Assembly: GCA_951812955.1 (NCBI GenBank)
Contig: OX638340.1
Location: 576,001 to 640,000, forward strand
Reading direction: 5' to 3'
DNA length: 64,000 nucleotides
Origin: an uncultured Gemmatimonadota bacterium
Lineage (GTDB): Bacteria; JAAXHH01
In this document: positions 25,622-43,346 of the stretch, one piece after another
Layout: each line of letters starts with the position of its first letter
Position numbering within the stretch: the first letter of the stretch is position 1
The notes under the pieces: model-generated
What the model was told of the DNA's origin: nothing
What the model saw: the letters and a program-made list of their open reading frames with translations, nothing else
Database searches by the model: none
Position numbers and translations under genes: made by a program

Positions 25622-25625
25622 GGCG

Positions 25626-26594: not shown

Positions 26595-28028
26595 TTAATC
26601 TCCCAGGACCCAGATGTCTTTGCCTCCCCCGCCCTGGCTGGAGTTCACGACGAGACTTCCCTCACGCAGCGCCACACGGCAGAATGCCCCCGGGACGATG
26701 CGCGTCTCGCGTCCGTGCAGGACAAAAGGGCGCAGGTCCACGTGTCGCGCCGCGGCGCGGCCCTCGATCATGCAGGGAGCGCGTGAAAGGTCGAGCACGG
26801 GTTGCGCAATGAAATCGGCCGGATTTTCCAGGATCTCGCGGATGTAGGCATCCCGCACCGCAGAGGTCGATCGGGGACCGACCAGCATGCCATAGCCCCC
26901 GGACTCGCCCACCCTTTTAACGATGAGATCCTCCAGATTGTCCAGCGTGTATTCCAGGTCTTCCTCCCTCCGGCAGATGTAGGTTTTTACGTTCATAAGC
27001 AGCGGTTCTTCGCCCAGATAGTAACGTATCATGTCCGGAACGTAGGCGTACACGCTCTTGTCGTCTGCAACCCCCGTGCCCGGTGCATTCGCCAGGGTAA
27101 CGTTTCCGGCCCGATAGACTCCCATCAGCCCGGGAAGTCCCAGCAGAGAGTCCGGACGGAAAACCAAAGGGTCAAGGAAGTCGTCGTCCACCCGCCGGTA
27201 TATGACGTCCACCTTGCGCAGGCCCGACGTGGTGCGCATGTACACGTAACCCCCGTTGACAAGCAGGTCCCGGCCTTCTACCAGGGTCGCACCGATCTCT
27301 TCGGCCAGGTAAATATGTTCGTAGAACGCCGAATTGTATACGCCAGGCGTCAGCAAAACCACGCACGGATCGGGATCTTCCCGGGGTGCGAGTTCCTTCA
27401 GGATTTCACGAAGCAGGCGGCCGTAGTGCTCGACCTCCTGTACCCGGCAACTGCGATAAAGCCTTCGAAGATTGGCCTTCACCGCCTTCCGGTTGGCGAC
27501 CATGTAGGACACGCCGGAGGGCACACGGAGGTTGTCCTCGAGGACGTGGAACCCCTCGTTCGTGCGCACCAGATCCGTTCCACAGACGGCGACATACGTG
27601 CCGTGGGGGACGTTTATGCCCCGCATTTCCACGCGATACTGGGGACAACCGTGCACCATGTCGACGGGAATGACCCCGTCCTCGACGATACGGGCTGATC
27701 CGTAGATGTCGGCCAGGAAAAGGTTCAGGGCTTTCAGGCGCTGGGTAAGTCCGGCTTCGAGTTGCCGCCATTCCCCGGCTGTGATAAGACGGGGTAGACA
27801 GTCGACCGGCATAATTCGTTCATTGGCCTCATCGCCGCCGTAGACTGTAAACGTGATGCCTTCGCTGGAAAAGGAATGGGTGACCCTTTCCTGCATGCGA
27901 ACGAGTTCTTCAACAGGAAGCCTGAGCAGGGAATCGTAGAGCGTACGGCAGTGATCACGGGGGTTGCCGTCGGGCTGGAACATCTCGTCGTAGAAAGCGC
28001 TGTCGATTTCGTAATCTTCAAAGTCCAT
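26595..28028 (-). CDS. circularly permuted type-2 ATP-grasp protein
   Basis: 477 aa. 'YRRVDDDFLDP', 'NAPGTGVADDKSVYAYVP' and 'VKRVGESGGYGMLVG' are characteristic of the DUF404/DUF407 ATP-grasp family. AGGAGA SD. Confidence 0.85.
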   Translation of the reverse strand: MDFEDYEIDSAFYDEMFQPDGNPRDHCRTLYDSLLRLPVEELVRMQERVTHSFSSEGITFTVYGGDEANERIMPVDCLPRLITAGEWRQLEAGLTQRLKALNLFLADIYGSARIVEDGVIPVDMVHGCPQYRVEMRGINVPHGTYVAVCGTDLVRTNEGFHVLEDNLRVPSGVSYMVANRKAVKANLRRLYRSCRVQEVEHYGRLLREILKELAPREDPDPCVVLLTPGVYNSAFYEHIYLAEEIGATLVEGRDLLVNGGYVYMRTTSGLRKVDVIYRRVDDDFLDPLVFRPDSLLGLPGLMGVYRAGNVTLANAPGTGVADDKSVYAYVPDMIRYYLGEEPLLMNVKTYICRREEDLEYTLDNLEDLIVKRVGESGGYGMLVGPRSTSAVRDAYIREILENPADFIAQPVLDLSRAPCMIEGRAAARHVDLRPFVLHGRETRIVPGAFCRVALREGSLVVNSSQGGGGKDIWVLGD

Positions 28029-30788: not shown

Positions 30789-31678
30789 CCGGTAAGGGAC
30801 GTGGCATCCGAACGGCCATCGTCGCGCTCGTGCTGGCGGCGATCGTTTACGACTGTTTCTATGTGATCAACGAAACCCAGCAGGGGGTCCTGACGAACTT
30901 CGGCCGGATTTCGCCTCCGGTGAAGCAGCCCGGACTACATGTCAAGTGGCCCCGACCGATTTCAAGAGTCTACAAGGTGGACCGGAGGCTGCAGACACTC
31001 ACCGACGTGTCCCATGAGTTGATTACCGAAGATCAGAAGAACATCCTGATCAGCGGCTACCTGCTCTGGCGCATCGTAGACCCAATCCTGTATGTCGAGG
31101 CGATACGCACGGGCGCCAATGCAGCCGAACGTCTGCGGGATCTCTACCTTTCGAGCAGTGGGATCGTGATCAGTAACAAGGCCCGTGATGCATTCATCAG
31201 CCTTGGGCTGGAACACGAAGACCTGCACGAAGCGGCCCGTGACATCCTGAGCAGTGTCGCCCCGATTGCCAGTACCAACTATGGTATCGAGGTGCTGAAA
31301 GCCGGTATCATCGAATACACGCTGCCCATGGAAAACCGCCCGGCCGTGATCCAGCGTATGATATCGGAGCGCGCGCGCATCGCGGCCCGGTACCGCAGCG
31401 AGGGCGAGGAGATGGCCATCCGCATCGAAGCGCTGGCAATAAACGAACATGAGAAGCTTATGGCGGAGGCGCACGCGGAAGCCACGGCCATACTCGGTGA
31501 GGCCGAAGCGGAAGCGATGGCTTTGCTGGGCAGGGCTTACCGGAGGGACCCGGCGTTCTACCGGTTCATCCGGGCCCTTGACAGTTATGATCTGATTATC
31601 GACAAAAACACGACCCTTATGTTGCCGGCCGACAACGAACTGTTCAGATACCTGGACAGCAGAACGGTTCCCAGGTAG
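30785..31678 (+). CDS. hflC: HflC-like SPFH-domain protein
   Basis: ATG overlaps the upstream stop (ATGA). 'YVINETQQGVLTNFGRI..PGLHVKWP'. The C-terminus 'DPAFYRFIRALDSY...LFRYL' parallels E. coli HflC 'DPDFYAFIRSLRAY...FFRYM'. Confidence 0.8.
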   Translation: MTGKGRGIRTAIVALVLAAIVYDCFYVINETQQGVLTNFGRISPPVKQPGLHVKWPRPISRVYKVDRRLQTLTDVSHELITEDQKNILISGYLLWRIVDPILYVEAIRTGANAAERLRDLYLSSSGIVISNKARDAFISLGLEHEDLHEAARDILSSVAPIASTNYGIEVLKAGIIEYTLPMENRPAVIQRMISERARIAARYRSEGEEMAIRIEALAINEHEKLMAEAHAEATAILGEAEAEAMALLGRAYRRDPAFYRFIRALDSYDLIIDKNTTLMLPADNELFRYLDSRTVPR

Positions 31679-31695
31679 AGCGAGATCTCAAACCC

Positions 31696-33033
31696 ATGAC
31701 GAACGAAAAGCGACCTTTACCTTACAGCACGCGCGTAATCTATGCCATGTTCGATTGGGCGCGCACCTACGGCTGGAACCGGCTGTTCTGGAGCGTGATC
31801 GCCTTTTCCATCGTGGCCGTGCTGGCCAGCGGGTTTTATATCATAAAGAAAGAAGAGCAGGGCGTCCTCGTTCGTTTCGGCAAGGTGGTGGACGAGAACC
31901 TTGGTCCGGGCATTCATTACTGCGTTCCGTTCATATACGAAACCCACATACGCAAGGTGAAGCGCATCGTCCGTGTCTCTATCGTCAGCGAAGGGACGGC
32001 TGGGGATACGCACGTCACGCTGCTGTCCGGCGACACGAACCTTGTGGAGGTGGATGTGGCCGTGCAGTACAAGATAGACAACCTGCGAAACTATCTCTTT
32101 GCGGTTTCGGACCCGACGATGTTGATGACCATGATCGTACGGGAAGAAATGGTCAATATCGTGGGGCAGAATTTCATCGACCTTATACTCACGTCTAACC
32201 GGAACATCATCGAACGTCATCTCCACGACTTCCTCGCCGGACGTCTCGAAACGATTGACATCGGTATCGAACTCGTCGACCTGAACATCCTGGACATCCG
32301 CCCCATCGAAGAGACCGTAGAGGCCTTCCGGGACGTCAACGATGCCATTTCCGAGCGCATGCAGTCCATCAGCAACGCCAACCTGCGCAGGGAGAAACTG
32401 GTCGCCCGCACGAAGGGCCAGACGGAAGCGATTGTCATGGATGCGAAAGCCACGGCGAGAGAACGCGTTCTGCAGGCCGAAAGCAGTGCCGGCGCATTCT
32501 CGAAACTGCTAGACGAATACGCCAAGCAACCGGCCCAGGTGGGCATTACCCGTTACTGGCAGCGGATGCGAACGATTTTCGCCGAAGCGAACCTGGCCGC
32601 GGTTAATCCCGGCAACGACGCGAATATCGAAGTCAACCTGGTAGACAGCGGCACGGCGTTGACGCCGGTGGAAATGGCTTTCGATTCGCCGGAAGCGTTG
32701 TCGGCCGCCGGCCCCGATTCGCTGGACAGGCCGGTTTATTCGACCTTGCCCCCGGATATTCATCGATATGAGAACATCGACAGGGACGGTTTCCTGATCG
32801 AAGGCAGATTCCATAGCAGGAACACCGAACGGGATCACCTTCCCGTCGCCAGGCCTCGATCGCTCATTTTCGACACGCCTTCCATCTTCAGCCATGGACA
32901 CGTGGCGACAAGCAGCACGGACACGGCGAATCAATCAGGCGAGAAGGCCATGGTCGATACCATGCACGACGAAGAAAGCGAAGAAGAATCTAAAGAGGGC
33001 ACGGAAGGGAGCCAAAGTGATCCGAAGCAATAA
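31696..33033 (+). CDS. hflK: HflK-like SPFH-domain protein with long acidic C-terminal tail
   Basis: 'FYIIKKEEQGVLVRFGKVVDENLGPGIHYCVPF', 'VEAFRDVNDAISE', then a coiled coil. The last 110 aa or so are non-homologous, ending 'DEESEEESKEGTEGSQSD'. Confidence 0.75.
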   Translation: MTNEKRPLPYSTRVIYAMFDWARTYGWNRLFWSVIAFSIVAVLASGFYIIKKEEQGVLVRFGKVVDENLGPGIHYCVPFIYETHIRKVKRIVRVSIVSEGTAGDTHVTLLSGDTNLVEVDVAVQYKIDNLRNYLFAVSDPTMLMTMIVREEMVNIVGQNFIDLILTSNRNIIERHLHDFLAGRLETIDIGIELVDLNILDIRPIEETVEAFRDVNDAISERMQSISNANLRREKLVARTKGQTEAIVMDAKATARERVLQAESSAGAFSKLLDEYAKQPAQVGITRYWQRMRTIFAEANLAAVNPGNDANIEVNLVDSGTALTPVEMAFDSPEALSAAGPDSLDRPVYSTLPPDIHRYENIDRDGFLIEGRFHSRNTERDHLPVARPRSLIFDTPSIFSHGHVATSSTDTANQSGEKAMVDTMHDEESEEESKEGTEGSQSDPKQ

Positions 33034-34180
33034 ATCGCCCGGTCTTGCCTCGCTGGCAGCCGCCATTTTCATCACATTGCTGGCACACCCCTTGCCGGCC
33101 AGGGCGGAAACAGGCATATCCTCGGATGCCATCGTATTCGGTCAAAGCGCATGCTTTACGGGTCCCAACCGGAATCTGGGACTGTACTACAGGGCAGGCA
33201 TTCTTTCCGCATTCGAGGAACGGAACCGAGAGGGCGGGATCAACGGAAGGACGTTAAGGCTGCTTTCGCTGGATGATGGATATGAGCCGGAACAGGCCGC
33301 AGCGAACGCGGAGCGGTTTGCGGCGGAAAATGACGTCTTCGCGGTAATCGGCGGCGTGGGGACGCCGACTGCAAAGCGCATCGCCCCCGTTCTCCGCTCA
33401 GCCGACATACCCTTCGTCGGTCCTTTCACTGGCGCGGATTTCCTGCGTAATTTCGACCGGTTCCCCAACGTCATCAACCTCCGGGCCGCGTACCTGGATG
33501 AAGTCGTGACCATGGTTGATTATATCGTAAATGATCTGGGAAAGAACCGGTTCGGCGTCATCTACCAGGACGACGCCTTTGGACGCTCTGTACTTCGAGA
33601 CTTCCAGATTGCGCTCAACGCCCATGACCTGCCAATCCTTGCAAAGACCGCCCATTCCCGGAACACCCACGCGGTACACGCGGGGTTGTTTATGATCTCC
33701 AAGGCGGACCTCGATGCCATTCTGATTGTGGGATCGTATGCCGCAAACTCTGAGATCATCAACCTGTCCCACTCCCTGGGTCATGACTACATCGTTGCGA
33801 ATCTTTCTTTTGTCCTTTCCCACGAACTGAAGAAGCTGGTCGAAAACCATTCGAACAAAATCCTGGTGACCGAGGTAATACCGGATCCGAACAGCACTTC
33901 CAGCCTGGTAGTCCAGCGTTTCCTGGACGCGTTGCGGCCGGAATACGGAGAGGCCGAGACTGTCACGGCCCTGGTGAACGAAGTGGCCCTGGAAGGCTAC
34001 ATCCTCGGACGTTTCGTAATTGATGTGCTGGAGCGCATGGAAGGCGTTTTGACACGGGAACAATTCATGAACGTCGCGCTGTCTCCCGATAAAGTCATGA
34101 TCGACGACTGGACCCTGGAGTTCGCGCCCGGTACGAATACGGGGTCAAGATACATCCGGCTTACCAATCTGGGCGAATAG
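33017..34180 (+). CDS. periplasmic substrate-binding protein (Leu/Ile/Val-binding, Peripla_BP_6 type), orphan
   Basis: GTG 33017 (GGAAGGGA upstream) gives signal peptide 'LASLAAAIFITLLAHPLPARA'. 'IVFGQSACFTGPN...LDDGYEP...VIGGVGTPT'. No ABC permease or ATPase gene nearby. Confidence 0.75.
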   Translation: MIRSNKSPGLASLAAAIFITLLAHPLPARAETGISSDAIVFGQSACFTGPNRNLGLYYRAGILSAFEERNREGGINGRTLRLLSLDDGYEPEQAAANAERFAAENDVFAVIGGVGTPTAKRIAPVLRSADIPFVGPFTGADFLRNFDRFPNVINLRAAYLDEVVTMVDYIVNDLGKNRFGVIYQDDAFGRSVLRDFQIALNAHDLPILAKTAHSRNTHAVHAGLFMISKADLDAILIVGSYAANSEIINLSHSLGHDYIVANLSFVLSHELKKLVENHSNKILVTEVIPDPNSTSSLVVQRFLDALRPEYGEAETVTALVNEVALEGYILGRFVIDVLERMEGVLTREQFMNVALSPDKVMIDDWTLEFAPGTNTGSRYIRLTNLGE

Positions 34181-34204
34181 CAACCTTTACACGAGGACTG
34201 ACCT

Positions 34205-34693
34205 GTGAAGAAGGTGGATGAGTTTACGGTCGAGGAAATCGGCGAGGAGTGGTTGCGCGAGCTTTACAAGGTCGTCGCGCTCCGGCGCGGTACCATGTTC
34301 AGGATGATTACTGAATCGACCCGTCTTCTCTTGTTCGGTAACGCGGGTGGCGCGGCGCTGATCATCGGCTTCATGAGCGCGGCAACGGGCGACCAGGCGT
34401 CCTCCTACCACTGGTTCAGCTTGTTTTCACTGCTCTCGTTCGCGCTAGGCACCCTTGCCTCCGCCCTGACGATGATCCTGGTGGCCGTAGTCTCGGTAAA
34501 AGAAGCCCACGGCGCCGAGAACGCGCTGAAACGTTTCGTCGATGGAGAAATCAACCGGTCACAGGTCATGTTCACCGTTGAAGAGCAAACCTTCCGTCTC
34601 GCCGATTCGGCCACCGTATCGGGTATTGTGAGTGCACTGGGGTTCATGGTGGGCGGGTTGGTCACGATAGCACTGCTTACGATTTTCTTCTAA
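34205..34693 (+). CDS. hypothetical small membrane protein (3-4 predicted TM segments)
   Basis: GTG start with GAGGA 7 nt upstream. Hydrophobic stretches 'LLLFGNAGGAALIIGFM', 'FSLFSLLSFALGTLASALTMILVAVV', 'GIVSALGFMVGGLVTIALLTIFF'. No family recognised. Confidence 0.5.
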   Translation: MKKVDEFTVEEIGEEWLRELYKVVALRRGTMFRMITESTRLLLFGNAGGAALIIGFMSAATGDQASSYHWFSLFSLLSFALGTLASALTMILVAVVSVKEAHGAENALKRFVDGEINRSQVMFTVEEQTFRLADSATVSGIVSALGFMVGGLVTIALLTIFF

Positions 34694-34766
34694 ATCGGCA
34701 CGCCGCAGTATAGCATACGTCCTCGCAGGAACATACACGCACATAGATGGTTAGGACGCTTCCGCT

Positions 34767-35642
34767 GTGTTGAATGATATTGTATTGCTTCTCCTGACCT
34801 ACTCGGCGGCGATCTTTGCCGTATCCCTTCTGGGCGGCAAACTTTCGGCCATCGTCACCATGACCCATTTCCGCACGCAACTGGTCATGAGTCTCGTGGC
34901 GGGGTTTCTGCTGGGCGTCGCCATGTACCACCTCCTGTTGCACAGCCTGGAGGATATCCCCGGACCGTATGCCGGTGAAATCGCCGTGGGGTGTGCGGTA
35001 CTTGGCGTCATCATGATTATCGTGCTGCTGCGAATATTCCGGTTTCATCAACACGAATTCGATCACGAAGCAGTGGAGACGCCGGACCAGCATGGCCACC
35101 ACGATCATCATGGTTCGGTAAACGTCAACCCCCGCAGCGTGTTCGGTGTCGCCACGGGTCTCGGGCTGCACACGGTAACCGAAGGTATCGCCCTCGGCGC
35201 GAGCATGCGTATCGGTTTGATTCATGAAGGGGAAACGATTCTTGTCGGCCTGGGGGTATTTCTGGCGATCATGCTGCATAAGCCGTTGGACGCGTACTCC
35301 ATTATAGGATTGATGAGAGTGTCGGGCTACGGCGACCGGGCTTGTACGTTGACTAACGTCGGTTTCGCCCTGTTGTGTCCGCTCATTACGATATTGACCT
35401 ACCTTGGCGTCGGCGTGTTGAGTGAACTCAACGAGCTGCATGTCGTGGGATACATCATGGCCTTCGCCGCCGGAGTCTTTCTGTGCATCTCCCTGAGCGA
35501 TCTGCTGCCCGAGATACAGTTTCACACTCACGACCGCGGAATACTCGCCGTCGCCTTCCTCATCGGGATCGGTCTCGCCTACGCCCTGTTCTATTTCGAA
35601 TCCGACACCATGCATGGGCTGGAGACGCTGGACACCCATTAG
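34767..35642 (+). CDS. ZIP family divalent-metal transporter
   Basis: 8-TM-like profile. 'GLHTVTEGIALGAS' and 'MLHKPLDAYSIIG' metal-site helices. His-rich cytoplasmic loop 'HQHEFDHEAVETPDQHGHHDHHG'. 'CISLSDLLPE'. Confidence 0.75.
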   Translation: MLNDIVLLLLTYSAAIFAVSLLGGKLSAIVTMTHFRTQLVMSLVAGFLLGVAMYHLLLHSLEDIPGPYAGEIAVGCAVLGVIMIIVLLRIFRFHQHEFDHEAVETPDQHGHHDHHGSVNVNPRSVFGVATGLGLHTVTEGIALGASMRIGLIHEGETILVGLGVFLAIMLHKPLDAYSIIGLMRVSGYGDRACTLTNVGFALLCPLITILTYLGVGVLSELNELHVVGYIMAFAAGVFLCISLSDLLPEIQFHTHDRGILAVAFLIGIGLAYALFYFESDTMHGLETLDTH

Positions 35643-35669
35643 CGTTCCCCCGCACTGCGAGTACTGGAG

Positions 35670-37898
35670 ATGACGACAAACTCCACGCAAGCGCAGCACT
35701 TCGACGTGGATACCGAAACCCGCGTATTCCACGTAGAGGGCATGACCTGCAGCGCGTGTTCCGCGCGGGTTGAGAAAATCCTTTCCGATGTCCCGGGTGT
35801 CGCCGCCGCCCACGTAAACCTTGCCCTTGAACGTGCGACACTTACAGTCAGGCCAACCCTGGATGTTGACACGCTGGCCGGGCCCGTGGCCGATGCCGGA
35901 TACAGGCTGACTCCCGTACAGGATGATCGATACGAACCTGAAATGGCACGCGGTCAGGCAAGCCGGGATCGTGTCGCCATGATCACCGCGATCATCGTGA
36001 CCTCCCCCTTTCTTCTGCAGATGCTGAGCAGACTGCTGCAAAGCTGGACCGGCATCGAATGGCATATGCCGGTCTACGCGGAAGCGCTGGCGGCTACTGT
36101 TCTGCAGATCGGTATCGGCGCCCGTTATTACCGGAGCGCTTTTCACGCGTTGCGCGGCGGCGGCGCGAACATGGACGTCCTGGTGGCCCTGGGCACGTCG
36201 TCCGCCTTCGCATACAGCTGGTACCTGGTGATCAGTCAGGGTTCCGGCGCGTCGGGGCAACTCTACTTCGAAGCCTCGGCGATCATCATTACTCTCGTGC
36301 TCGTCGGCAAGCACATCGAAACCCGTGCGCGGCGAAGCGCGGGCCGTGCGATACGCGAGCTGCTCGCCATCCGGCCGGTTACCGCGCAGATACGAACGGC
36401 GGACGGTACGGAGTGGGAAATGCCGGTGCACGCTTTGAAGGTGGGTGACGTCGTGATCTGCCGCCCCGGCGACCGGGTAGCCGTGGACGGCGTCGTGCTG
36501 CGGGGAGAGGCCGAAGTCGACGAGGCCCTCATCACCGGCGAGAGCGTACCCGTTCCGAAAAGCCCTGCCGACACCGCGATTGCCGGATCGTTGAATATCA
36601 ACGGCTTCATGGAAATCGAGGCCCGAGCCGTCGGAAGTGATTCGACCCTGGGCCGGGTGATCCGCCTGGTCGAAAACGCCCAGGCCGCCAAACCAGCCAT
36701 CCAGCGCCTGGTGGATCGAATCAGCGGCGTATTCGTACCTGTTGTCGTAGGCCTGGCCGTGATCACTTTTGCCGGGTGGATCCTCGCAGGGGGCGATCTT
36801 GAAACTGCTTTGATAAATGCCGTTTCCGTCCTCGTCATCGCCTGTCCCTGCGCGCTGGGACTGGCGACACCGACGGCGATCGTGGCCGGCGCCGGAGCGG
36901 CGGCCCGGGCAGGTATCCTGGTTAAGGACATCGAATCCCTGGAACAGGCTCACGGGCTGACTCACATCGTATTCGACAAGACGGGAACGCTGACCGAAGG
37001 CAGGTCAGTCCTCGCGTCCCTGGTTCCCCTGGCCGACCGAGGCGAAGAGGAGTTGCTTTCAATCGCCGCGGGGCTGCAGCAGGGCAGTGAGCATCCCTTC
37101 GCCAGGGCATTCAAGTTGGCCGCGGCCGGACGGAGCGTGTCACCCGCCGGGGTTGAACGATTCAGAAGCGTGGTGGCGCGCGGCGTCGAGGGCGAAGTCG
37201 AAGGGACGCGTTACCTGCTCGGCAACCGAAGACTCTTCCACGAGGCCTGCGGGGATACGCCACCGCCAGATTCCCCGCAATCCGGCGGCGTGTCCGCGGT
37301 CTGGCTGGCCGCCCGAGGAGATGCCGGATGCGAATACCTGGCTCGCTTCGATCTCGTCGATGCATTACGCGCCGACGCGGCTGAAGTGGTTGACAGGCTC
37401 AGGAAGCTCGGGGTAAGGATCTTGCTCGTATCGGGCGATGCGGAATCCGTAGTGGCGCAGATCGGCAGCGCGGCGGGTGTCGACGAATCGTACGGCGGCG
37501 CCACGCCGGAAGACAAGGAGCGTATCGTCGGACGATTGACGGAGAGCGGGGCGAAGGTCTGCATGGTCGGCGACGGGATCAACGACGCGCCGGCCCTCGC
37601 CCGCGCAACCGTGGGTATCGCCATGGGTTCCGGTACGGACGTGGCGATGGAAACGGCAGCGATCACGCTGATGAGACCCGAACCGGTCCTGGTGGCCGGC
37701 GCCATCGACGTGAGTCGAAGGACAATCCGGAAAATAAAGCAGAATCTGTTCTGGGCGTTTATCTACAACGTAATCGGACTTCCGCTGGCCGCAACGGGAT
37801 TCCTCTTCCCGGCGCTCGCCGCGGCCATGATGGCCTGCTCCAGCATCAGCGTCGTGCTCAACTCTATGACGCTCCGCGCATGGCGGCCCGATTCGTAA
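35670..37898 (+). CDS. copA: copper-translocating P1B-type ATPase
   Basis: HMA domain 'GMTCSACSARVEK'. TM 'CPCALGLATP'. 'DKTGTLTEG', 'SEHPFARA', 'MVGDGINDAPAL'. Confidence 0.9.
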   Translation: MTTNSTQAQHFDVDTETRVFHVEGMTCSACSARVEKILSDVPGVAAAHVNLALERATLTVRPTLDVDTLAGPVADAGYRLTPVQDDRYEPEMARGQASRDRVAMITAIIVTSPFLLQMLSRLLQSWTGIEWHMPVYAEALAATVLQIGIGARYYRSAFHALRGGGANMDVLVALGTSSAFAYSWYLVISQGSGASGQLYFEASAIIITLVLVGKHIETRARRSAGRAIRELLAIRPVTAQIRTADGTEWEMPVHALKVGDVVICRPGDRVAVDGVVLRGEAEVDEALITGESVPVPKSPADTAIAGSLNINGFMEIEARAVGSDSTLGRVIRLVENAQAAKPAIQRLVDRISGVFVPVVVGLAVITFAGWILAGGDLETALINAVSVLVIACPCALGLATPTAIVAGAGAAARAGILVKDIESLEQAHGLTHIVFDKTGTLTEGRSVLASLVPLADRGEEELLSIAAGLQQGSEHPFARAFKLAAAGRSVSPAGVERFRSVVARGVEGEVEGTRYLLGNRRLFHEACGDTPPPDSPQSGGVSAVWLAARGDAGCEYLARFDLVDALRADAAEVVDRLRKLGVRILLVSGDAESVVAQIGSAAGVDESYGGATPEDKERIVGRLTESGAKVCMVGDGINDAPALARATVGIAMGSGTDVAMETAAITLMRPEPVLVAGAIDVSRRTIRKIKQNLFWAFIYNVIGLPLAATGFLFPALAAAMMACSSISVVLNSMTLRAWRPDS

Positions 37899-37959
37899 TG
37901 GTAATACGCTGTTCCCGCGATGATCCGGTCATCCGACCGTTCGCCGTACTGATGAAACG

Positions 37960-40116
37960 CTAGGAGGATTCCTGCGGGGCTACGGCAGGTTCGAACGGAA
38001 GGCTAATGGCCATCTCGGTGTACTCCCCCGGTTCGGAATCCACCTCGATGTTACCCCCGTGCTCGCGGACGATATCGTTGGAGAGCGCCAGACCGAGGCC
38101 TGTGCCCTGGTCGGTAGGCTTGGTGGTAAAAAAGGGATTGAAGATCTTCTCCCGCACGTGGGGCGGTATCCCCTTGCCATTGTCCTTTATGCGCACGACG
38201 ATATGATCTTCCTCGCGGCGGGTGGACAGCCAGATCGCGGGTACGTATCCGCTTTCCGTATCCGGGTCTTCTCTTTTCTCGTTGGTCGCATGGCAGGCAT
38301 TGTTCACCATATTCAGAAACACACGGGCCATTTCCTGCGAAACGATCTCAATCTTTCCGAGATCGGGGTCGAAGTCCTCGTTGATTTCGAGTTGAAAATC
38401 CGGGTTGGATGCCCTGGCGGCGTGGTACGCCAGCCGGGCATGTTCTTCCAGTAACGCGTTTACGTCCGTGGACTGCTTGTCTCCCGATCCGCGCCCCATC
38501 TGCAACATGTCCCGCACGATCCGGTTGGCCCGTTCGCCGTGTTCCCTGATCCGGCGCAGATTATCCGTAAGATCACCGCCGATTTCCCGGATGAGATCGT
38601 TCTGCGCTTCGTCGAGCGAACCGCCGCCTTCAGGCAGTTCTTCATGCAGTTCCTCCAGCAGTTCTTCCGACGACTCCGCGAAGTTTTTTACGAAGTTCAG
38701 CGGGTTCTGGATTTCGTGGGCAACGCCTGCAGTTAGTTCGCCGAGGGCCGCCAGCTTTTCCCGCATGACGATCTGGTTCTGCGCCCGCTGCAGTTCGCCC
38801 AACGTTTCTTCCAGTTTGTCGTTCTTGCCCCGCAATTCCTCCGCGAGTTTTTCCACGAGGTTCAGCCGTTGCGCTTCGATCGAATGCAACCTGAACACTT
38901 CAAGCGCCGAGGCCATGTCCGCCACCTCGTCGCGGCCGTCCAGCTCCACTTTTTGTTTCAAGTCGCCCCCCGCCATGCGCCGCATGTGTTCGGACAGAAA
39001 ACCCAGGCGACGCAGCAGGACTTTTCCCACGAACAACCAGGCGATCAGCAAAGCGCCAATCAGGCTGACCGCGTTCAGAGCGAGCAGGAGCTGTCTTCCC
39101 ACCTGGATCGTCCGGGTCGACGCGACCGTCGCGGCCTGGGTGCTTGTCTGCGCCGAGTTTACGAGATTTTCCACCTCAGCAACCAGATCGACCGCGATAT
39201 TCCGATTGTTCTCTATCAGTGCTCGCTGCTGGTCAAGGAGTTCCAGATCTTCCGCACGAATCTGAAATATCTGCTCGTTTCCGCTTCCCAGTTCAAACAA
39301 TTGAGCGAATACCGGTTCGAGCCTCTGTCTCAGTGAAGACGTACCCAGGCCGGCGAGACTTCTTTCCACTCCCCCGCTGGCCGATTCGAACCGTTCCAGC
39401 AAGGGCTCTATCCTGTCGGCGTCGACGAGATTGAAGACATTCGACAGGATCCGGGTACTGACAGTCGCCTCGGTCTGCAATTCAGCGAGGTGGCGGTACC
39501 GCTGAAGTTCCAGCTCGGAAAGATACTCCGAACGGGGCGCCGCGGGCTCGTCGATGTTCCGGTAACCCGTCGTCGTGTAAAACAGCTGGTCGTCCAGGGC
39601 CGGGACAAGAATACCGGTCAGTTCGGATTGCAGCCGCCCCAGTTCCCTTCGTAACAACTGGCTTTGTTCTTCAAGGATGAAACGGCGCGCCACAGACTCC
39701 TCGATCATCCTGATGTTGGACATCAGCGTATTCCCGCTTTCGCTGATGCGTTGAAAGCGCTCGTTTTCCATGCTGTACGCGGCGATTGCCTCCAACTGAT
39801 CCGCGAAACTCTCCCGCTCGTTGGCAATACTCGCGGTCACGGCTTCGAAAGCCTCGGGGGTCTCCGCGGCCGCCAGACGAGGAGCGGCCGCCGCCAGCGT
39901 TCCGCTCCGCTGCGCCACCCCGAAGGCCGCGGCGATTTCGGGTACGGCTACCTCGTTCACTTCGCGCTGTGCTTCACCTACCTCGTTGAAGGCGAACCAC
40001 GCCACCAGACTTGCGAACATGGTGATCGCTACCGCAGTCCCGATACCCAGGTACAGCTGCCCCGAAATTCGGGACGGGCCCTTGTCGTATAACCACAGCA
40101 GCCACTTTTTGATCAT
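37960..40116 (-). CDS. sensor histidine kinase (two TM segments, large extracytoplasmic helical domain, HAMP, HisKA, HATPase_c)
   Basis: HAMP 'MRRMAGGDLKQKVELDGRDEVADMASALEVFR'. H-box 'VAHEIQNPLNFV'. N/G boxes 'NMVNNACHA' and 'DNGKGI...GTGLGLALS'. No receiver domain. Confidence 0.85.
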   Translation of the reverse strand: MIKKWLLWLYDKGPSRISGQLYLGIGTAVAITMFASLVAWFAFNEVGEAQREVNEVAVPEIAAAFGVAQRSGTLAAAAPRLAAAETPEAFEAVTASIANERESFADQLEAIAAYSMENERFQRISESGNTLMSNIRMIEESVARRFILEEQSQLLRRELGRLQSELTGILVPALDDQLFYTTTGYRNIDEPAAPRSEYLSELELQRYRHLAELQTEATVSTRILSNVFNLVDADRIEPLLERFESASGGVERSLAGLGTSSLRQRLEPVFAQLFELGSGNEQIFQIRAEDLELLDQQRALIENNRNIAVDLVAEVENLVNSAQTSTQAATVASTRTIQVGRQLLLALNAVSLIGALLIAWLFVGKVLLRRLGFLSEHMRRMAGGDLKQKVELDGRDEVADMASALEVFRLHSIEAQRLNLVEKLAEELRGKNDKLEETLGELQRAQNQIVMREKLAALGELTAGVAHEIQNPLNFVKNFAESSEELLEELHEELPEGGGSLDEAQNDLIREIGGDLTDNLRRIREHGERANRIVRDMLQMGRGSGDKQSTDVNALLEEHARLAYHAARASNPDFQLEINEDFDPDLGKIEIVSQEMARVFLNMVNNACHATNEKREDPDTESGYVPAIWLSTRREEDHIVVRIKDNGKGIPPHVREKIFNPFFTTKPTDQGTGLGLALSNDIVREHGGNIEVDSEPGEYTEMAISLPFEPAVAPQESS

Positions 40117-41327
40117 GGCATTACGTCCCGGAGGGTATTGATGGGATGGTAACGGCCATCCTTTCCGATCACCGTGAGGAAAACGGCGTCGGAACCCTGG
40201 TTGTCCCCGGCTCCGAATTCAAGACGAAGACCGCCCATATCGATGGTCCCGGCCTGGTTCAGACTTTCCACGAGACAAGTCCGCCTTACGTCGGGACCGC
40301 AGCCTTCGAGCGCGGTGATGGCCAGTCTGCCCGCCAGGTATCCTTCGAAAGAAACGAATCCGGGTGTGGAGCCGGGCGCGTGCGCGGCGAGTGCGCGGCG
40401 ATACCGCACTGCAATGGCAATATTGCCGGCTGCAGGGAAGGGTACTACCTGGGAAACCAGTACACCCTGGCCATCGGGACCCAGCTCACCGGCCAGGGCG
40501 TTGCTTCCCACGAAGGAGATCGTCGCGAACACCGGGTTGAATCCCACGTGCCGCGCCCATGAGATGAGCGTAGCGACCGGATGGTACGCGCCGATGACGA
40601 CCACGGCGTCCGGCTTGCCGGCCTGCAGATCTAGCAGCCCCGCCTTGATCGCCGTGGTGTTCCGGGGATACACGCCGATCGCCACCGGATCCAGGTTCCT
40701 TCGATCCAGCGCTCGCCGCACACCCCGGTAACCCACCCGGCCGAAGGAATCGTTCTGGTACATCACGCCTATGCGCGTGATCCCCAGATCGCGCGAAAGG
40801 CGGTCGACGATTTCCTCGGTTTCCTGGAAATAGGAGGCGCGTAGATTGATGACGCCGGTTTCCGTGTTGTCCCTTAGGAAGATCGCGCCGGTAAATGGCG
40901 CGATATAGGGCACACCGGCCTGCGACGTGATGGGAACGGCCGAACGGGAAGTCGGCGTGCCGACCGCGCCGATCAGCGCGAATACGCCTTCGTCCTCAAT
41001 CAGCTTGCGCGTGTTTGCGATGGCGGCTTCGGGTTCGTAGGCGTCGTCGAGCGTAATGAGCGCAAGCCGCCGTCCATGTACGCCGCCCCTGCGGTTTGCT
41101 TCCTGGAAGGCCGCCTCGATGCCGAGGTTCATGTTGCGGCCGAGTTCCCTGGCAGGACCGCTGAACGCCGCCGACTGTCCGAACAGAATTTGTTCGTCCG
41201 TTACGCCGGGTTCTTCGATCTGGGAGGCGTTCGCGCCGCTGTGTGCTGGAATTAAAGCGGGAGAGAACGCCGTCGCACCAAGGGCGAGTAGTATGGCGAC
41301 CGCCCAGTGGTCACGCGTTCGTCTCAT
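40113..41327 (-). CDS. periplasmic substrate-binding protein (Peripla_BP_6 type), translationally coupled to the kinase
   Basis: Signal peptide 'AVAILLALGATAFSPALIPAHS'. 'ILFGQSAAFSGPA...LDDAYEP...LIGAVGTPT'. 4-nt overlaps at both ends (41324-41327 and 40113-40116). Confidence 0.8.
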   Translation of the reverse strand: MRRTRDHWAVAILLALGATAFSPALIPAHSGANASQIEEPGVTDEQILFGQSAAFSGPARELGRNMNLGIEAAFQEANRRGGVHGRRLALITLDDAYEPEAAIANTRKLIEDEGVFALIGAVGTPTSRSAVPITSQAGVPYIAPFTGAIFLRDNTETGVINLRASYFQETEEIVDRLSRDLGITRIGVMYQNDSFGRVGYRGVRRALDRRNLDPVAIGVYPRNTTAIKAGLLDLQAGKPDAVVVIGAYHPVATLISWARHVGFNPVFATISFVGSNALAGELGPDGQGVLVSQVVPFPAAGNIAIAVRYRRALAAHAPGSTPGFVSFEGYLAGRLAITALEGCGPDVRRTCLVESLNQAGTIDMGGLRLEFGAGDNQGSDAVFLTVIGKDGRYHPINTLRDVMP

Positions 41328-41749
41328 CCATTTTCCTTCCGCTTGACGATCGTCAGGACGTTCTTGTCGTTTTCCCGGCGGTAGCTCAGTTCATCCATCA
41401 TGGTCCGAACCAGATAGATGCCGAGACCGCCGACGGGCCGGTCTTCAACCCCAGACTCGATATCCGGTTCCGGGGAGTCGGTAAGCGGGTTGAACGCCGG
41501 GCCTTCGTCCCGCAACTCGATGGTCAACGTTTCGGAATCGGAGTCCAGTACCACTTCGAATTCGTGTTCCGGGTCGTTGGCGTGGCCGTGGGTAACGATG
41601 TTGACGCCCAGTTCCTCAAGGACCAGCTTGACCTGGTACACCATGCCCGGCGGCCATTCTTCCGACTCGCCAAGTTCGTCCACGGCCTCGTAAATCCGTT
41701 CGAGTTGGTCCAGTCTGGTAGGCAGGCGAAGAGAGAGTTTTCTACGCAT
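41324..41749 (-). CDS. RsbW/SpoIIAB-like anti-sigma-factor-type serine kinase (HATPase_c_2)
   Basis: 141 aa. 'VKLVLEELGVNIVTHG' (N-box region), 'IELRDEGPAFNP', 'GGLGIYLVRTMMDELSY'. Confidence 0.75.
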   Translation of the reverse strand: MRRKLSLRLPTRLDQLERIYEAVDELGESEEWPPGMVYQVKLVLEELGVNIVTHGHANDPEHEFEVVLDSDSETLTIELRDEGPAFNPLTDSPEPDIESGVEDRPVGGLGIYLVRTMMDELSYRRENDKNVLTIVKRKENG

Positions 41750-41757
41750 GGGCGAAC

Positions 41758-42915
41758 CTAGCGTTGAAGCACGGTGACACAGGTTATATCATCCGACTGC
41801 GCCGTCTCCCCCGCGAAATCATGAACCGCTTTGAACACGGCCTTGTTCGCTTCTTCCGTGGTGGCGGGAGGGGAATCCGAGAATACCGCCTGCAGGCGAT
41901 CCATACCGAATTCCTCGCCGTCGGCGTTCATGGCTTCGGTAACTCCGTCCGTGTAGAGCACAAGCAAATCGCCGGGCGAGACCGAGATGGCAGACTGGCC
42001 AAACTCGACGCCGGGGAAGACCCCGAGGGCCATCCCGTCGGTTCCGGGGAGCAGGGTCGAAGAGCCATCGGGATGGACTACGAGCGGGGGATTGTGTCCT
42101 CCATTGGCGTAGTCGACCTGGCCGGTTTCGGGGGTGTACACCGCGTAGAACGTGGTGACGAACATAGCCGCTTCGTTTTCTTCAGTAAGGAGATCGTTGA
42201 CTTCCTTCAATACGGCGCCGGGATCCATGGCCCCGATTGCCGATCCCTTCAGCAGGGTCCGGCTCGACATCATGAACAGGGCCGCCGGCACGCCCTTGTC
42301 GGATACATCGGCGATGGCCAGGCCGATTCTACCGCCAGGCAAGGGAAAGACGTCGAAAAAATCGCCGCCGACTTCTCGGGCGGGCTCCATGTTCGCGAAG
42401 ATCGTGCAGTGATCGGAATCGGGAAACTCGGTCGGCAGAATCGACTGCTGCATCTTGCTGGCCACGTTCAGTTCGTTCTGCAGCCGAACCAGCTTATCCC
42501 GCGACTCCAGGGCTTCGCGCCATTCCTCCATGTTCTTCAGGGTGCGTTCGATGGTTACACGAAGGTCCTGGAAATCGATAGGCTTGGTAATGAAGTCGAA
42601 AGCACCCCGGTTCATGGCCGTCCGGATGTTCTTCATGTCCCCGTATGCGGATACCACGACGGCGCGGATGTCGGGGGCGATGTTCGGTATCTGCGCCAAC
42701 AGGGTCAGACCGTCCATCCTGGGCATGTTGATATCCGATAACACCATATCGATATCGGGGATCTCGCTCAGACGTTCCAGGGCTTCCACGCCGTTCTGGG
42801 CGAAAAACAGGGTGTATTGGCCGGAACGGACATCACGGCGCAATCGCTGACGCATGAGGTGTTCGAGATCCGGCTCATCGTCCACTACAAGGATTTTATA
42901 CGGTGTCTGCGTCAT
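41758..42915 (-). CDS. response regulator receiver fused to PP2C (SpoIIE) phosphatase
   Basis: REC: 'KILVVDDEPD...DMVLSDINMPRMDGL'. PP2C: 'REVGGDFFDVF', 'IADVSDKGVPAALFM', 'LYTDGVTEA', 'QSDDITCV'. Confidence 0.85.
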   Translation of the reverse strand: MTQTPYKILVVDDEPDLEHLMRQRLRRDVRSGQYTLFFAQNGVEALERLSEIPDIDMVLSDINMPRMDGLTLLAQIPNIAPDIRAVVVSAYGDMKNIRTAMNRGAFDFITKPIDFQDLRVTIERTLKNMEEWREALESRDKLVRLQNELNVASKMQQSILPTEFPDSDHCTIFANMEPAREVGGDFFDVFPLPGGRIGLAIADVSDKGVPAALFMMSSRTLLKGSAIGAMDPGAVLKEVNDLLTEENEAAMFVTTFYAVYTPETGQVDYANGGHNPPLVVHPDGSSTLLPGTDGMALGVFPGVEFGQSAISVSPGDLLVLYTDGVTEAMNADGEEFGMDRLQAVFSDSPPATTEEANKAVFKAVHDFAGETAQSDDITCVTVLQR

Positions 42916-43007: not shown

Positions 43008-43346
43008 TTACTGACCGATCTTATCCACGGCTTCCGCCTGGGTATCGTGGATGGAAATGATCTTGTCAAATCCGCTGATTTCGAAGACTTCACGGATCGG
43101 GTCCGACAGGGAGCACAGCGCGAAAGCGGCATTCCGCTTCTGAAGCAATCTAGCGATCAGCAGGATGACCCTCAGCCCGGCGCTGCTTATATAGGACAGC
43201 GCTCCGAAATCAAGCAACACCTTGCTGTCGTCTTCCGCAATGGCGCCGTTAAGCGCATCCTCGAATTCCCGGGCGTTCGCACCGTCGATTCGACCTTCAA
43301 CCTTCGCAATCAGTACCTCGTTTGCTCGGTCGACACTGATCTCCAT
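43008..43346 (-). CDS. STAS-domain anti-sigma-factor antagonist (RsbV/SpoIIAA-like)
   Basis: 112 aa. 'LLDFGALSYISSAGLRVILL' contains the conserved phosphorylatable Ser context. 'IREVFEISGFDKI'. GGGGGA SD. Confidence 0.85.
   Translation of the reverse strand: MEISVDRANEVLIAKVEGRIDGANAREFEDALNGAIAEDDSKVLLDFGALSYISSAGLRVILLIARLLQKRNAAFALCSLSDPIREVFEISGFDKIISIHDTQAEAVDKIGQ

Follow-up and report, generated by a model that had tools for sequence, protein, structure and literature searches.

The two paralogous periplasmic binding proteins encoded in the 64-kb stretch of DNA that we analysed (the window), here called BP1 and BP2, are sister proteins that probably work in two independent systems, BP2 with a histidine kinase and BP1 with a permease/SPFH module. 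What is observed directly is the domain content, the paralogy, the overlapping genes, the synteny conserved in each module and the TorS fold of the kinase sensor.

The binding proteins and their predicted pockets

33017..34180, plus strand: BP1, periplasmic Peripla_BP_6 protein, 387 aa (Pfam E 2.4e-44), component of the permease/SPFH module
40113..41327, minus strand: BP2, periplasmic Peripla_BP_6 protein, 404 aa (Pfam E 2.7e-53), proposed co-sensor of the kinase

Both reading frames lie where the original prediction had placed them and both are Peripla_BP_6 members by Pfam; its count of 56 identical residues among 107 positions of the N-terminal lobes was reproduced exactly. BLASTP aligns the proteins with 133 of 357 residues identical (37%; E 3e-78), and the two are sisters within a single Peripla_BP_6 sub-clade; 4kv7, 3lop and 4m88 are the three leading PDB relatives of each, and 4kv7 is the best solved relative of BP2 (E 7.7e-69). 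Homology searches returned more than 7500 homologues of BP2, with relatives in the genomes of at least 587 species, and 2299 homologues of BP1. On inspection of the sequences, each protein carries an N-terminal hydrophobic signal-like segment and neither has a lipobox cysteine. The start codon of BP1 is GTG, with GGAAGGGAG ahead of it, and the gene overlaps by 17 nt the end of the upstream Band_7 (HflK-like) gene, which stops at 33033; the identical overlap is present in the gene calls for the orthologues of loci L005 and L006. The open frame of BP1 reaches further upstream, to an ATG at 32894.

Eleven of the 13 columns equivalent to the LivJ pocket are identical between the BP1 and BP2 families, and the two families may bind related ligands, since their predicted pocket columns are nearly the same. 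In an approximate alignment the LivJ anchors Y18, Y202 and E226 correspond to Leu, Ala/Ser and Ser in BP1 and BP2; Y202 and E226 are the residues that hold the alpha-amino and alpha-carboxylate groups in LivJ. The near-identity of the pocket columns also leaves room for functional cross-talk between BP1 and BP2.

The BP2 signalling cassette

BP2 lies in a five-gene cassette on the minus strand (System A, 37960-43346), between the last two of the following genes.

43008..43346, minus strand: STAS anti-sigma-factor-antagonist-like protein, 112 aa, first gene of the cassette (Pfam STAS E 3.7e-21)
41758..42915, minus strand: REC-PP2C (Response_reg plus SpoIIE-type phosphatase), 385 aa (Pfam E 2.8e-25 and 8.9e-54)
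41324..41749, minus strand: RsbW-like serine kinase/anti-sigma-type protein, 141 aa (Pfam HATPase_c_2 E 4.1e-29)
37960..40116, minus strand: membrane histidine kinase, 718 aa (Pfam TorS_sensor_domain E 4.1e-9, HAMP, HisKA, HATPase_c)

The two 4-nt ATGA overlaps described earlier for BP2 are present, with the RsbW-like gene at 41324-41327 and with the kinase gene at 40113-40116. We compared 80 orthologous loci, the best of at least 587 genomic relatives, with binding proteins 62-93% identical to BP2; these are the best-scoring relatives chosen via two peptide patterns, and distant family members could differ in context. The histidine kinase gene is directly downstream of the BP2 orthologue on the same strand in every one of the 80, and the REC-PP2C gene is upstream on the same strand in every one as well; the RsbW-like gene is adjacent in 74, and a STAS homologue is found within 4 kb in 72. 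The 4-nt start/stop overlap of BP2 and kinase is possible in 74 of the 80 loci, and the ATGA overlap of the RsbW-like gene and BP2 in 59 of 74. The loci come from more than ten phyla or classes according to their MAG labels (Gemmatimonadota, Latescibacterota, Acidobacteriota, Alphaproteobacteria, Chloroflexota, Binatia, Opitutales, Nitrospinota, Spirochaetia, Rhodothermales and Acidimicrobiia). Conversely, the most divergent homologues of the kinase sensor domain that were checked (36-41% identity) also lie within the same cassette.

The STAS protein scores 79.6 bits against NCBIfam ant_ant_sig (cutoff 53.45). The translation of REC-PP2C shows the acceptor Asp (LSDINMP) and the PP2C Asp motifs, and this protein is presumed to be the cognate regulator of the histidine kinase. 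No sigma factor or other obvious target gene is present in the cassette. Ammonium transporter genes flank it in 32 of the 80 loci. Another recurrent neighbour is a triad that the metal cluster separates from the cassette here:

24704..28028, minus strand: Transglutaminase-like/Alpha-E/circularly permuted ATP-grasp triad (Pfam)

In 24 of the 80 loci the triad is no more than 10 kb from the cassette; it comes directly after the kinase gene in L121 and, in L002, 4.5 kb after it, past the ATPase and a truncated permease.

The kinase and its sensor domain

The kinase is laid out as TM, TorS-fold periplasmic domain (about residues 46-345), TM, HAMP, HisKA and HATPase_c; Pfam finds no REC or HPt domain in it, and the protein ends after HATPase_c. 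Residues 17-447 align to positions 2-435 of the TorS model TIGR02956, which the whole kinase matches in two stretches with E 2e-52 (178 bits against a cutoff of 676.5). When an AF2 model of the kinase (pLDDT 83.8) was compared with the PDB using Foldseek, the top six matches were all TorS sensor domains, the matches including the TorS-TorT complex 3o1i at a target TM-score of 0.83. Because the kinase gene is directly downstream in all 80 loci, the overlap is conserved and the sensor has a TorS fold, BP2 is very probably a TorT-like co-sensor of this kinase, with output via a PP2C partner switch.

The proposed pathway would begin with export of BP2 to the periplasm, where it would bind a small ligand and, like TorT on TorS, dock onto the TorS-fold domain of the co-translated kinase. 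This kinase, which is not a hybrid, would then phosphorylate the receiver domain of REC-PP2C; the latter, acting against the RsbW-like kinase, would set how far the STAS protein is phosphorylated, and the resulting partner switch would free or sequester a target encoded outside the cassette.

The BP1 module

BP1 is part of a different unit, a five-gene membrane module on the plus strand (System B, 28452-34693), followed by two metal transport genes.

28452..30788, plus strand: SO_0444-family (ArsP_1/DUF318) permease with a His-rich loop and a C-terminal SPFH fusion, 778 aa, first gene of the module (Pfam ArsP_1 E 1.3e-43, Band_7 E 8.1e-13)
30785..31678, plus strand: HflC-like SPFH protein, 297 aa (Pfam Band_7 E 1.7e-20)
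31696..33033, plus strand: HflK-like SPFH protein, 445 aa (Pfam Band_7 E 4.1e-19)
34205..34693, plus strand: 162-aa protein with three predicted TM segments, after BP1
34767-35642, plus strand: ZIP metal transporter (Pfam Zip)
35670-37898, plus strand: HMA-domain P1B-type ATPase (Pfam E1-E2_ATPase/HMA/Hydrolase)

The permease scores 314 bits against NCBIfam NF033936 (cutoff 300), the HflC-like protein 158.7 bits against TIGR01932 (cutoff 134.4) and the HflK-like protein, which passes marginally, 160.0 bits against TIGR01933 (cutoff 159.4); the 162-aa protein matches no Pfam or NCBIfam family. The context of BP1 is fixed across the loci compared (L005-L007 and L088-L115; BP1 orthologues 53-95% identical). 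Among those that were informative, the permease core is upstream of BP1 in 21 of 22, the HflC-like gene is present in 24 of 25 and the HflK-like gene in 26 of 26, and the 162-aa gene follows BP1 by 13-45 nt in 26 of 26 (60-99% identity). All permease orthologues examined have the His-rich loop, with 8-15 His per 40 aa. The ZIP and P1B-type ATPase genes (34767..37898), convergent with the kinase gene, are lineage-specific neighbours: about 10 of 31 BP1 loci have ZIP after the module, on the opposite strand in two, and the ATPase adjoins it only in close relatives.

We found no description in the literature of this arrangement of permease-SPFH fusion, HflK/C-like proteins, binding protein and 162-aa protein. 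BP1 would act within it; its likeliest role is that of a periplasmic receptor for a ligand, or of an accessory to an SPFH-scaffolded permease, the SPFH domains presumably lying in the periplasm, and BP1 would provide no second input to the kinase. The mechanism suggested for BP1 is the weakest part of our explanation, because a role for a binding protein in an apparently efflux-type permease module is without precedent.

Relationship of the two systems and alternative explanations

The original prediction took both proteins to be ligand co-sensors and suggested that BP1 could feed the same kinase. For BP2 the co-sensor role is strongly supported by the comparative evidence; BP1 has its own module, and nothing supports a link between it and the kinase. 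The BP1 module lies beside the cassette only in L001, L008-L011 and L088, where BP2 is at least 85% identical; 76 of the 80 BP2 cassettes have no BP1 module within 10 kb, and in at least 25 other loci BP1 orthologues keep their own module with no kinase nearby. The near-identical strain L002 retains an identical BP2 protein and an intact cassette, and has lost BP1 together with both SPFH genes, the 162-aa gene and ZIP. Here the plus-strand unit and the cassette are convergent, with a gap of 61 nt. These observations make it very improbable that BP1 and BP2 are both co-sensors of one kinase, coupling the metal cluster to the partner switch, even though they are sister proteins with common PDB relatives and nearly the same pocket columns, and their genes are about 6 kb apart in the source lineage. 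Some alphaproteobacterial cassettes do have a second Peripla_BP_6 gene directly after the kinase; its product, however, shares only about 31% identity with BP1, and an sCache-domain protein of its own comes next.

Two further readings concern transport. BP2 might primarily serve a distant Liv-type ABC importer, its place beside the kinase reflecting a dual role, as in ChvE and maltose-binding protein, or co-regulation; the Peripla_BP_6 fold and the source-database label "ABC transporter substrate-binding protein" would fit, and binding proteins with both transport and signalling roles are established (review PMC8050422). We regard this as unlikely for BP2; a distant importer might also be served by BP1. 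As had been predicted for the neighbourhood of both genes, the Pfam scan, which covered most of the window's ORFs of at least 200 aa, detected neither a Liv-type permease (BPD_transp_2) nor a Liv ATPase; the ABC ATPases in it were limited to SufC (48613-49377) and a fused ABC_membrane exporter (57487-59316). Liv-type ABC genes adjoin the cassette in just two of the 80 loci, L047 and, by motif scan, its close relative L057, and the Liv system of L047 has its own 498-aa binding protein. The replacement of the Y202 and E226 anchors also counts against an importer, the 4-nt coupling, conserved in 74 of 80 loci, points to the kinase as the stoichiometric partner of BP2, and binding proteins that stimulate kinases are encoded together with signalling genes (PMC8050422). 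The other reading makes the BP1 half of our explanation more specific: BP1 would be the extracytoplasmic substrate receptor of a new binding-protein-dependent secondary transporter, and the SO_0444-type permease, within an HflK/C-like SPFH assembly, would receive a metal or metal chelate from it. It is possible but doubtful. The strict co-occurrence and tight spacing of the module genes, the His-rich loop, the recurrence of ZnuA/ABC-3, ZIP and P1B-ATPase genes nearby and the joint loss of BP1, the SPFH genes and the 162-aa gene in L002 and L012 speak for it. However, L012 retains the permease core, ZIP and ATPase, so BP1 co-varies with the SPFH genes and not with the core; the permease family is named for Cu/Zn efflux in NCBIfam, and efflux needs no substrate-delivering binding protein. 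To our knowledge, moreover, no LIVBP-type protein is a metal binder. Two independent systems remain our preferred explanation.

Comparison with known systems

TorT-TorS, the TMAO sensor of E. coli and Vibrio parahaemolyticus (PDB 3o1h/3o1i), had been named as a precedent and is the right one for BP2 and its kinase, because the kinase has a TorS-fold sensor domain. The TM-sensor-TM-HAMP layout is also that of TorS, and in both cases the gene for a type-I periplasmic binding protein adjoins the kinase gene without a transporter. TorS is a hybrid kinase (REC plus HPt) that signals to the DNA-binding regulator TorR, whereas the cassette kinase lacks these domains. Unlike in TorT-TorS, no TMAO reductase genes are found near the cassette, and TorT is classed under Peripla_BP_1 (PMC8050422), not Peripla_BP_6.

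On the output side, the cassette resembles the RsbK-RsbY-RsbV-RsbW pathway of Bacillus cereus, in which a histidine kinase has as its partner a receiver-PP2C phosphatase that acts on a STAS/RsbW-like pair; PMC9912610 describes phosphotransfer from RsbK to RsbY. Unlike that pathway, the cassette has no sigma-factor gene in or beside it in any locus examined, would receive its input through a periplasmic binding protein and a TorS-fold domain, and occurs in diderm and monoderm environmental lineages. A REC-PP2C paired with a STAS antagonist is likewise seen in HptB-HsbR-HsbA and RssB-RssC of Pseudomonas, partner switching by HsbR-HsbA being described in PMC6482189. The Pseudomonas RssB model is the best NCBIfam match of our REC-PP2C (E 1e-33; 117 bits against an equivalog cutoff of 700), but in the cassette RsbW has a gene of its own, and the operon also includes the kinase and the binding protein.

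BP1 and BP2 have the Peripla_BP_6 fold of LivJ/LivK, but score 43-53 bits against PRK15404 (cutoff 477) and have no LivHMGF neighbours. The BP1 module recalls the SO_0444 Cu/Zn efflux permease and the HflK/HflC complex, whose models its proteins match; unlike these, its permease carries a third SPFH domain as a fusion and occurs together with a Peripla_BP_6 protein and the 162-aa membrane protein, and no FtsH gene is associated with it. TRAP and TTT transporters, which combine DctP/TctC binding proteins with DctQM/TctAB membrane parts, belong to unrelated protein families; as a concept, they provide a precedent for non-ABC permeases served by periplasmic binding proteins, substrate delivery being a candidate role for BP1.

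Organization of the two loci

The two Peripla_BP_6 proteins of the window, BP1 (387 aa) and BP2 (404 aa), are encoded on opposite strands, BP1 within a metal cluster and BP2 within a signalling cassette.

Genes of the two units
28452-37898 (+), metal cluster; the first gene encodes a fusion of an ArsP_1/SO_0444-type permease, which has a long His/Asp loop, with an SPFH domain
30785-31678 (+), HflC-like SPFH protein (TIGR01932, 158.7 bits against a cutoff of 134.4)
31696-33033 (+), HflK-like SPFH protein (TIGR01933, 160.0 bits against 159.4, marginal)
33017-34180 (+), BP1 (Pfam Peripla_BP_6)
directly after BP1 (+), 162-aa protein with three TM segments, matching no family
end of the plus-strand unit (+), ZIP transporter, then HMA-domain P1B ATPase with its stop at 37898
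43346-37960 (-), cassette: STAS protein, REC-PP2C, RsbW-like kinase, BP2 (40113-41327) and 718-aa histidine kinase, in that order (Pfam)

The stops of the ATPase (37898) and the histidine kinase (37960) face each other across 61 nt, and because the units are convergent they do not form one transcript; a terminator scan of this gap found none there. BP1 starts with GTG, with a Shine-Dalgarno-like sequence (GGAAGGGAG) 5′ of the start, and its first 17 nt also belong to the end of the upstream gene.

Both proteins match Peripla_BP_6 in Pfam (BP1, E 2.4e-44; BP2, E 2.7e-53) and are 37% identical across 357 residues (E 3e-78). For both, 4kv7, 3lop and 4m88 are the nearest solved structures, and the two are thus sisters in one sub-clade of the family. 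The original prediction described them as orphan paralogues, with 56 of 107 positions identical in the N-terminal lobes and with 4-nt overlaps on both sides of BP2. A recount gives exactly the same figure, and ATGA is found at both the RsbW-like/BP2 and the BP2/kinase junctions. Their orphan status also holds: among most ORFs of at least 200 aa in the 64-kb window, Pfam reveals neither a BPD_transp_2 permease nor a Liv-type ATPase; just two ABC ATPases are encoded, SufC and that of a fused ABC_membrane exporter. An RND efflux set (OEP outer-membrane factor, AcrB-family pump and HlyD-type adaptor) is located at 15623-21276 (-), 7 kb upstream of the metal cluster.

Conservation of the BP2 cassette

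An exact-sequence look-up of BP2 gave no match, and the genomic context was therefore taken from homologues. These number more than 7500, many of them approximately 70% identical despite source labels from several phyla; a scan using one genome per species returned at least 587 relatives. The cassette counts below refer to the 80 best of these loci (L008-L087; BP 62-93% identical), examined by tblastn with the proteins of the window; the sample is skewed to close family members, and the taxon labels are the depositors' own. L-numbers denote loci in other genomes or contigs.

Immediately 3′ of the binding protein gene, on the same strand, 80/80 loci have a kinase whose sensor domain is homologous, and REC-PP2C is upstream of the binding protein gene in all 80. 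The RsbW-like gene is situated between REC-PP2C and the binding protein gene in 74 loci, and a STAS gene is found within 4 kb in 72. The kinase start codon could overlap the BP stop by 4 nt in 74/80 cases, as could the BP start the end of the RsbW gene in 59/74. The same cassette surrounds the most divergent sensor-domain homologues examined (36-41% identity). Locus labels include Gemmatimonadota, Latescibacterota, Acidobacteriota, Alphaproteobacteria, Chloroflexota/Dehalococcoidia, Binatia, Opitutales, Nitrospinota, Spirochaetia, Rhodothermales and Acidimicrobiia.

Across more than 10 labelled phyla or classes, including the monoderm Chloroflexota and Acidimicrobiia, BP2 orthologues are 62-74% identical and REC-PP2C mostly 59-73%. 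Such conservation is out of the ordinary in signalling proteins, suggesting that the cassette has travelled horizontally as a unit. Several of the MAG names (RHO3_bin, COS4_bin, APA_bin, SB06xx_bin) resemble names from sponge-microbiome studies. In alphaproteobacterial variants (L015 13408-15457; also L014, L016 and L021) the cassette has no adjacent RsbW or STAS gene, and the kinase is followed by a second, distant Peripla_BP_6 gene (433 aa) and then by a gene for an sCache_3_2-domain protein.

An ABC-ATPase motif scan flagged 14 of the 80 loci, with imperfect sensitivity, since it overlooked the SufC of the window. Liv-type ATPases were flagged near the cassette in two loci, L047 and its close relative L057 (the latter by motif scan). 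As a transporter for BP2 this pair was rejected, since the Liv system of L047 is complete and includes a 498-aa binding protein of its own. The ABC genes 3′ of the kinase in Acidobacteriota were likewise rejected as BP2 partners, being MacB/FtsX/HlyD exporters. Such MacB-type sets (ABC_tran, FtsX/MacB_PCD, HlyD) follow the kinase on the same strand in L037, L050, L052, L054 (13245-17599, for example), L065, L074 and L079.

The kinase and its sensor domain

The kinase possesses a predicted periplasmic TorS-type sensor between two TM segments, followed by HAMP, HisKA and HATPase_c domains, and ends at residue 718; Pfam reveals neither REC nor HPt domains in it. TorS_sensor_domain (PF21689) matches residues 58-327 with 36.8 bits against a cutoff of 27 (E 4e-9). 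Positions 2-435 of the TorS equivalog TIGR02956 align with residues 17-447, and the whole kinase scores 178 bits, far under the cutoff of 676.5. An AF2 model of residues 1-360, built with 27 homologues, is all-helical with a mean pLDDT of 83.8. TorS sensor domains occupy all of ranks 1-6 in a Foldseek search of the PDB with this model, with target TM-scores of 0.85 (3i9y, the top value) and 0.83 (3o1i, the TorS-TorT complex), and PilJ ligand-binding domains come next. Searching the PDB with the kinase sequence returned relatives of the catalytic core only, the TorS sensor not being among the matches, so that the Pfam and NCBIfam profiles and the fold search were needed to recognize the kinship. 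A word-index search with the sensor domain returned 51 proteins, mostly fragments, which were used for alignment and not as a census. On these profile matches and the model, the kinase is TorS-like in its predicted sensor and not in its output.

In some of the solved TorS sensor structures the periplasmic binding protein TorT is bound in a complex, and the TorT-TorS mechanism has been summarised (PMC8050422). BP2 itself matches only Peripla_BP_6, ANF_receptor and Peripla_BP_5 in Pfam, and the TorT model is absent from its NCBIfam matches at E <= 1e-5.

A putative partner switch as output

The components of a partner switch are encoded together in the cassette, with Pfam matches to SpoIIE (E 8.9e-54), STAS (E 3.7e-21) and HATPase_c_2 (E 4.1e-29). 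The receiver is fused to the PP2C phosphatase, and the kinase is in the same operon in 80/80 loci. The acceptor Asp of the receiver and the PP2C motifs are visible in the REC-PP2C translation. The Ser in "YISSAGL" of the STAS protein aligns by eye with Ser58 of SpoIIAA.

A four-step chain is likely, of which the parts list is what is seen directly. BP2, ligand-loaded or ligand-free, would dock on the sensor dimer; the HAMP domain would carry the signal to the kinase core; the kinase would pass phosphate to the receiver of REC-PP2C; and the PP2C and the RsbW-like kinase would between them determine how far the STAS protein is phosphorylated. Neither the cassette nor any other scanned ORF of the window has a sigma-factor domain, and none is listed for six other loci with gene tables (L001-L004, L120 and L121); no sigma factor or other target gene lies inside the cassette in any locus examined. 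A second partner-switch-type PP2C (GAF + SpoIIE, 584 aa) is encoded at 2615-4369 (-), 37 kb from the cassette, and could act on its STAS protein.

The BP1 module

The gene order permease(-SPFH)/SPFH/SPFH/BP/162-aa protein recurs in three unrelated genomes with BP1 orthologues 62-69% identical, among 2299 BP1 homologues. No kinase is found near BP1 in these three genomes; ZnuA/ABC-3 genes are located near two of the three strings. Counts of flanking genes were drawn from 31 loci, these three and those of a metagenome scan, the denominators being the informative loci.

Genes flanking BP1 (informative loci)
HflK-like gene, upstream of BP1: 26/26
HflC-like gene: 24/25
permease core: 21/22
162-aa gene, 13-45 nt downstream of BP1: 26/26

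The sole exception, L100, has neither the HflC-like gene nor the permease. Residues 19-426 of the permease score 314 bits (cutoff 300) with the SO_0444 Cu/Zn efflux model NF033936, the C-terminal SPFH fusion lying outside the model, and each orthologue contains a 40-residue stretch with 8-15 His. In the window the loop (HGHAHHDHDHGHDHGHDHDHDHDHSVHD; 28900-29000, residues ~150-180) is a near-perfect His-Asp repeat, the length of which varies between orthologues. No FtsH gene was seen in the BP1 module or in the gene tables of three BP1 loci, and these three tables contain no Liv genes around BP1. The context of BP1 is a conserved, uncharacterised metal-permease/SPFH module.

Direct binding of metal by BP1 was considered and rejected, its sole support being two family-invariant His in "SRNTHAVH", which are outside the LivJ pocket positions.

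Separation of the two loci and recurrent neighbours

It had been proposed that both binding proteins are ligand co-sensors rather than transport components, and that BP1 could feed the same kinase as BP2, linking the two loci; co-occurrence of the paralogues with the kinase in other genomes was suggested as a check. The proposal is borne out in part. For BP2 the comparison favours it: the kinase is directly downstream in every one of the 80 loci and has a TorS-fold sensor, and a role for BP2 as its co-sensor, as predicted from gene order and the model, is well supported. BP1, in contrast, has its own metal-permease/SPFH module without a kinase and adjoins the cassette in close relatives only. 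The module is within 10 kb of the cassette solely in L001, L008-L011 and L088, where BP2 is at least 85% identical. L001 and L002 encode one and the same BP2 protein (P0008). The cassette of L002 is intact, and a deletion in it (L002 13421-17482 compared with L001 13421-21215), on the far side of the ATPase from the kinase, has removed both SPFH genes, BP1, the 162-aa gene and ZIP; the permease beside the ATPase retains residues 1-604 and has lost its SPFH C-terminus. L002 thus presents, as a natural variant, the complete kinase cassette in the absence of BP1. L012 has kept the permease core, ZIP and the ATPase, and is without the SPFH genes, BP1 and the 162-aa gene. From the losses in these two loci it follows that BP1 varies in step with the SPFH and 162-aa genes, and not with the kinase. 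A co-sensor function of BP1 for the kinase of BP2 is not supported.

An Amt ammonium-transporter gene (PF00909) lies within 10 kb of the cassette in 32/80 loci of at least seven lineages, often directly 3′ of the kinase (among others L013, L017-L019, L022, L024-L026, L028, L030 and L033-L035). Amt is also found at L003 11378-12760 and L121 1217-2392; there is none in the window. A triad of CP_ATPgrasp, Alpha-E and transglutaminase-like genes is near the cassette in 24 of the 80 (triad-bearing loci include L012, L029, L030, L033 and L121), and either Amt or the triad in 42. In the window the triad is located at 24704-28028 (-), just past the metal cluster, the 9.5 kb of which part it from the kinase; the metal cluster therefore looks as though it had been inserted between the cassette and its usual neighbour. 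The triad of Chloroflexota is interrupted by Amt, which is inserted between its ATP-grasp and Alpha-E genes.

Divergent genes for PhyH-family dioxygenases (43486-44277 (-) and 44502-45479 (+)) stand directly beside the STAS gene; L001 and L002, both close relatives, retain the pair, and L005 also has a PhyH gene close to its BP1 module. A GPP34 (Golgi phosphoprotein 3-like) gene is found near the cassette in nine loci, such as L015 (7872-8525, directly upstream of REC-PP2C) and L003 (1789-2439, ~3 kb upstream of STAS). This family was recently linked to sponge symbiosis (PMC11706023), in a paper that does not mention the cassette. In the distant L003 (12715-17049) the cassette and Amt are followed by a housekeeping string of RluD-like, LspA, DksA, NUDIX, PNP_UDP_1, DivIVA and YggT genes. 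Parts of this string (pseudouridine synthase, PNP_UDP_1, YGGT) are present in the window at 4442-8531, ~30 kb from the cassette, which hints at an older common neighbourhood split by insertions.

Ligand pocket

Against PRK15404, the model of high-affinity branched-chain amino-acid binding proteins, BP1 scores 43 bits and BP2 52.9 bits, compared with a cutoff of 477. The pockets were compared in a MAFFT alignment of both families with the LivJ sequence verified against 1z15, which at ~20% identity is approximate. In the LivJ/LivK structures the residues holding the amino acid include Tyr18, Ser79, Thr102, Tyr202 and Glu226 of LivJ, the last four anchoring its alpha-amino and alpha-carboxylate groups. 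In this approximate alignment Tyr202 is replaced by Ala in BP2 and by Ser, Pro, Thr or Ala in BP1, and in both families Glu226 is replaced by Ser, Tyr18 by Leu and Ser79 by Thr; the Thr102 column is possibly off by one position. Hydrophobic and aromatic residues predominate in the pocket-equivalent columns (L, V, G, T, F, T, G, Y, F, S, F). As a lead and not a result, both proteins may have lost the amino-acid anchors of LivJ.

Peripla_BP_6 includes urea- and amide-binding members. In marine metagenomes, urea-metabolism domains are reported to vary together with those of the triad (PMC3597751), and these two points, together with the linkage to Amt, suggest with low confidence a small nitrogen compound as the ligand of BP2. 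The pocket columns are invariant inside each family and, within the limits of the approximate alignment, identical between the two at 11/13, which is the reason for considering that BP1 and BP2 may bind the same or a closely related small molecule. We regard as rather improbable the combined reading, in which the two share such a ligand and one LIVBP sub-clade would have been put to two uncharacterised uses: a TorS-fold kinase/PP2C cassette of more than 10 phyla tied to ammonium transport and the triad, and an SPFH-caged metal permease of a new, binding-protein-equipped kind with BP1 as receptor or gatekeeper in an HflK/C-like periplasmic assembly.

Implications

To our knowledge, only a handful of binding-protein-dependent histidine kinases have been studied. 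The cassette would be a widespread further case, in at least 587 species-level genomes. No Peripla_BP_6 protein is among the kinase stimulators listed in a review (PMC8050422), and neither the cassette nor the permease/SPFH/BP1 module was found described in the literature searched. As a solved close relative of BP2, 4kv7 is usable in ligand screening, and the frequent linkage to Amt and the triad provides a handle on the signal to which the uncharacterised triad responds. The conserved and apparently undescribed permease-SPFH-BP1-162-aa module could reveal the role of bacterial SPFH assemblies for transporters. Two cautions apply to annotation: BP1 and BP2 should not be named [quoted passage not shown], and paralogy together with proximity should not be read as a functional link.

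Comparison with known systems

LivJ and LivK have the Peripla_BP_6 fold in common with BP1 and BP2, neither of which is a LivJ/K orthologue. The SO_0444 permeases and HflK/C are known families, which the BP1 module joins in one arrangement.

BP2 and its kinase would work in the manner of TorT-TorS, with which they have the stacked four-helix-bundle type of sensor in common. Unlike the kinase of the window, TorS is a hybrid kinase with a C-terminal receiver and HPt domain, and TorT is listed under Peripla_BP_1, whereas BP2 belongs to Peripla_BP_6. Since the hybrid architecture and a TorT-type partner are absent and the equivalog score falls short, the pair are not members of the TorT-TorS system. 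The output resembles that of the RsbK/RsbY and HsbR/RssB families; RsbK-RsbY of Bacillus cereus has the nearest described logic of a kinase acting through a REC-PP2C on a partner switch (PMC9912610). The cassette would combine the TorS sensor fold with another family of binding protein and replace a DNA-binding regulator with a post-translational partner switch; that the predicted BP2-kinase pair adds a variant to the known binding-protein/kinase systems is well supported by gene order, domain matches and modelling.
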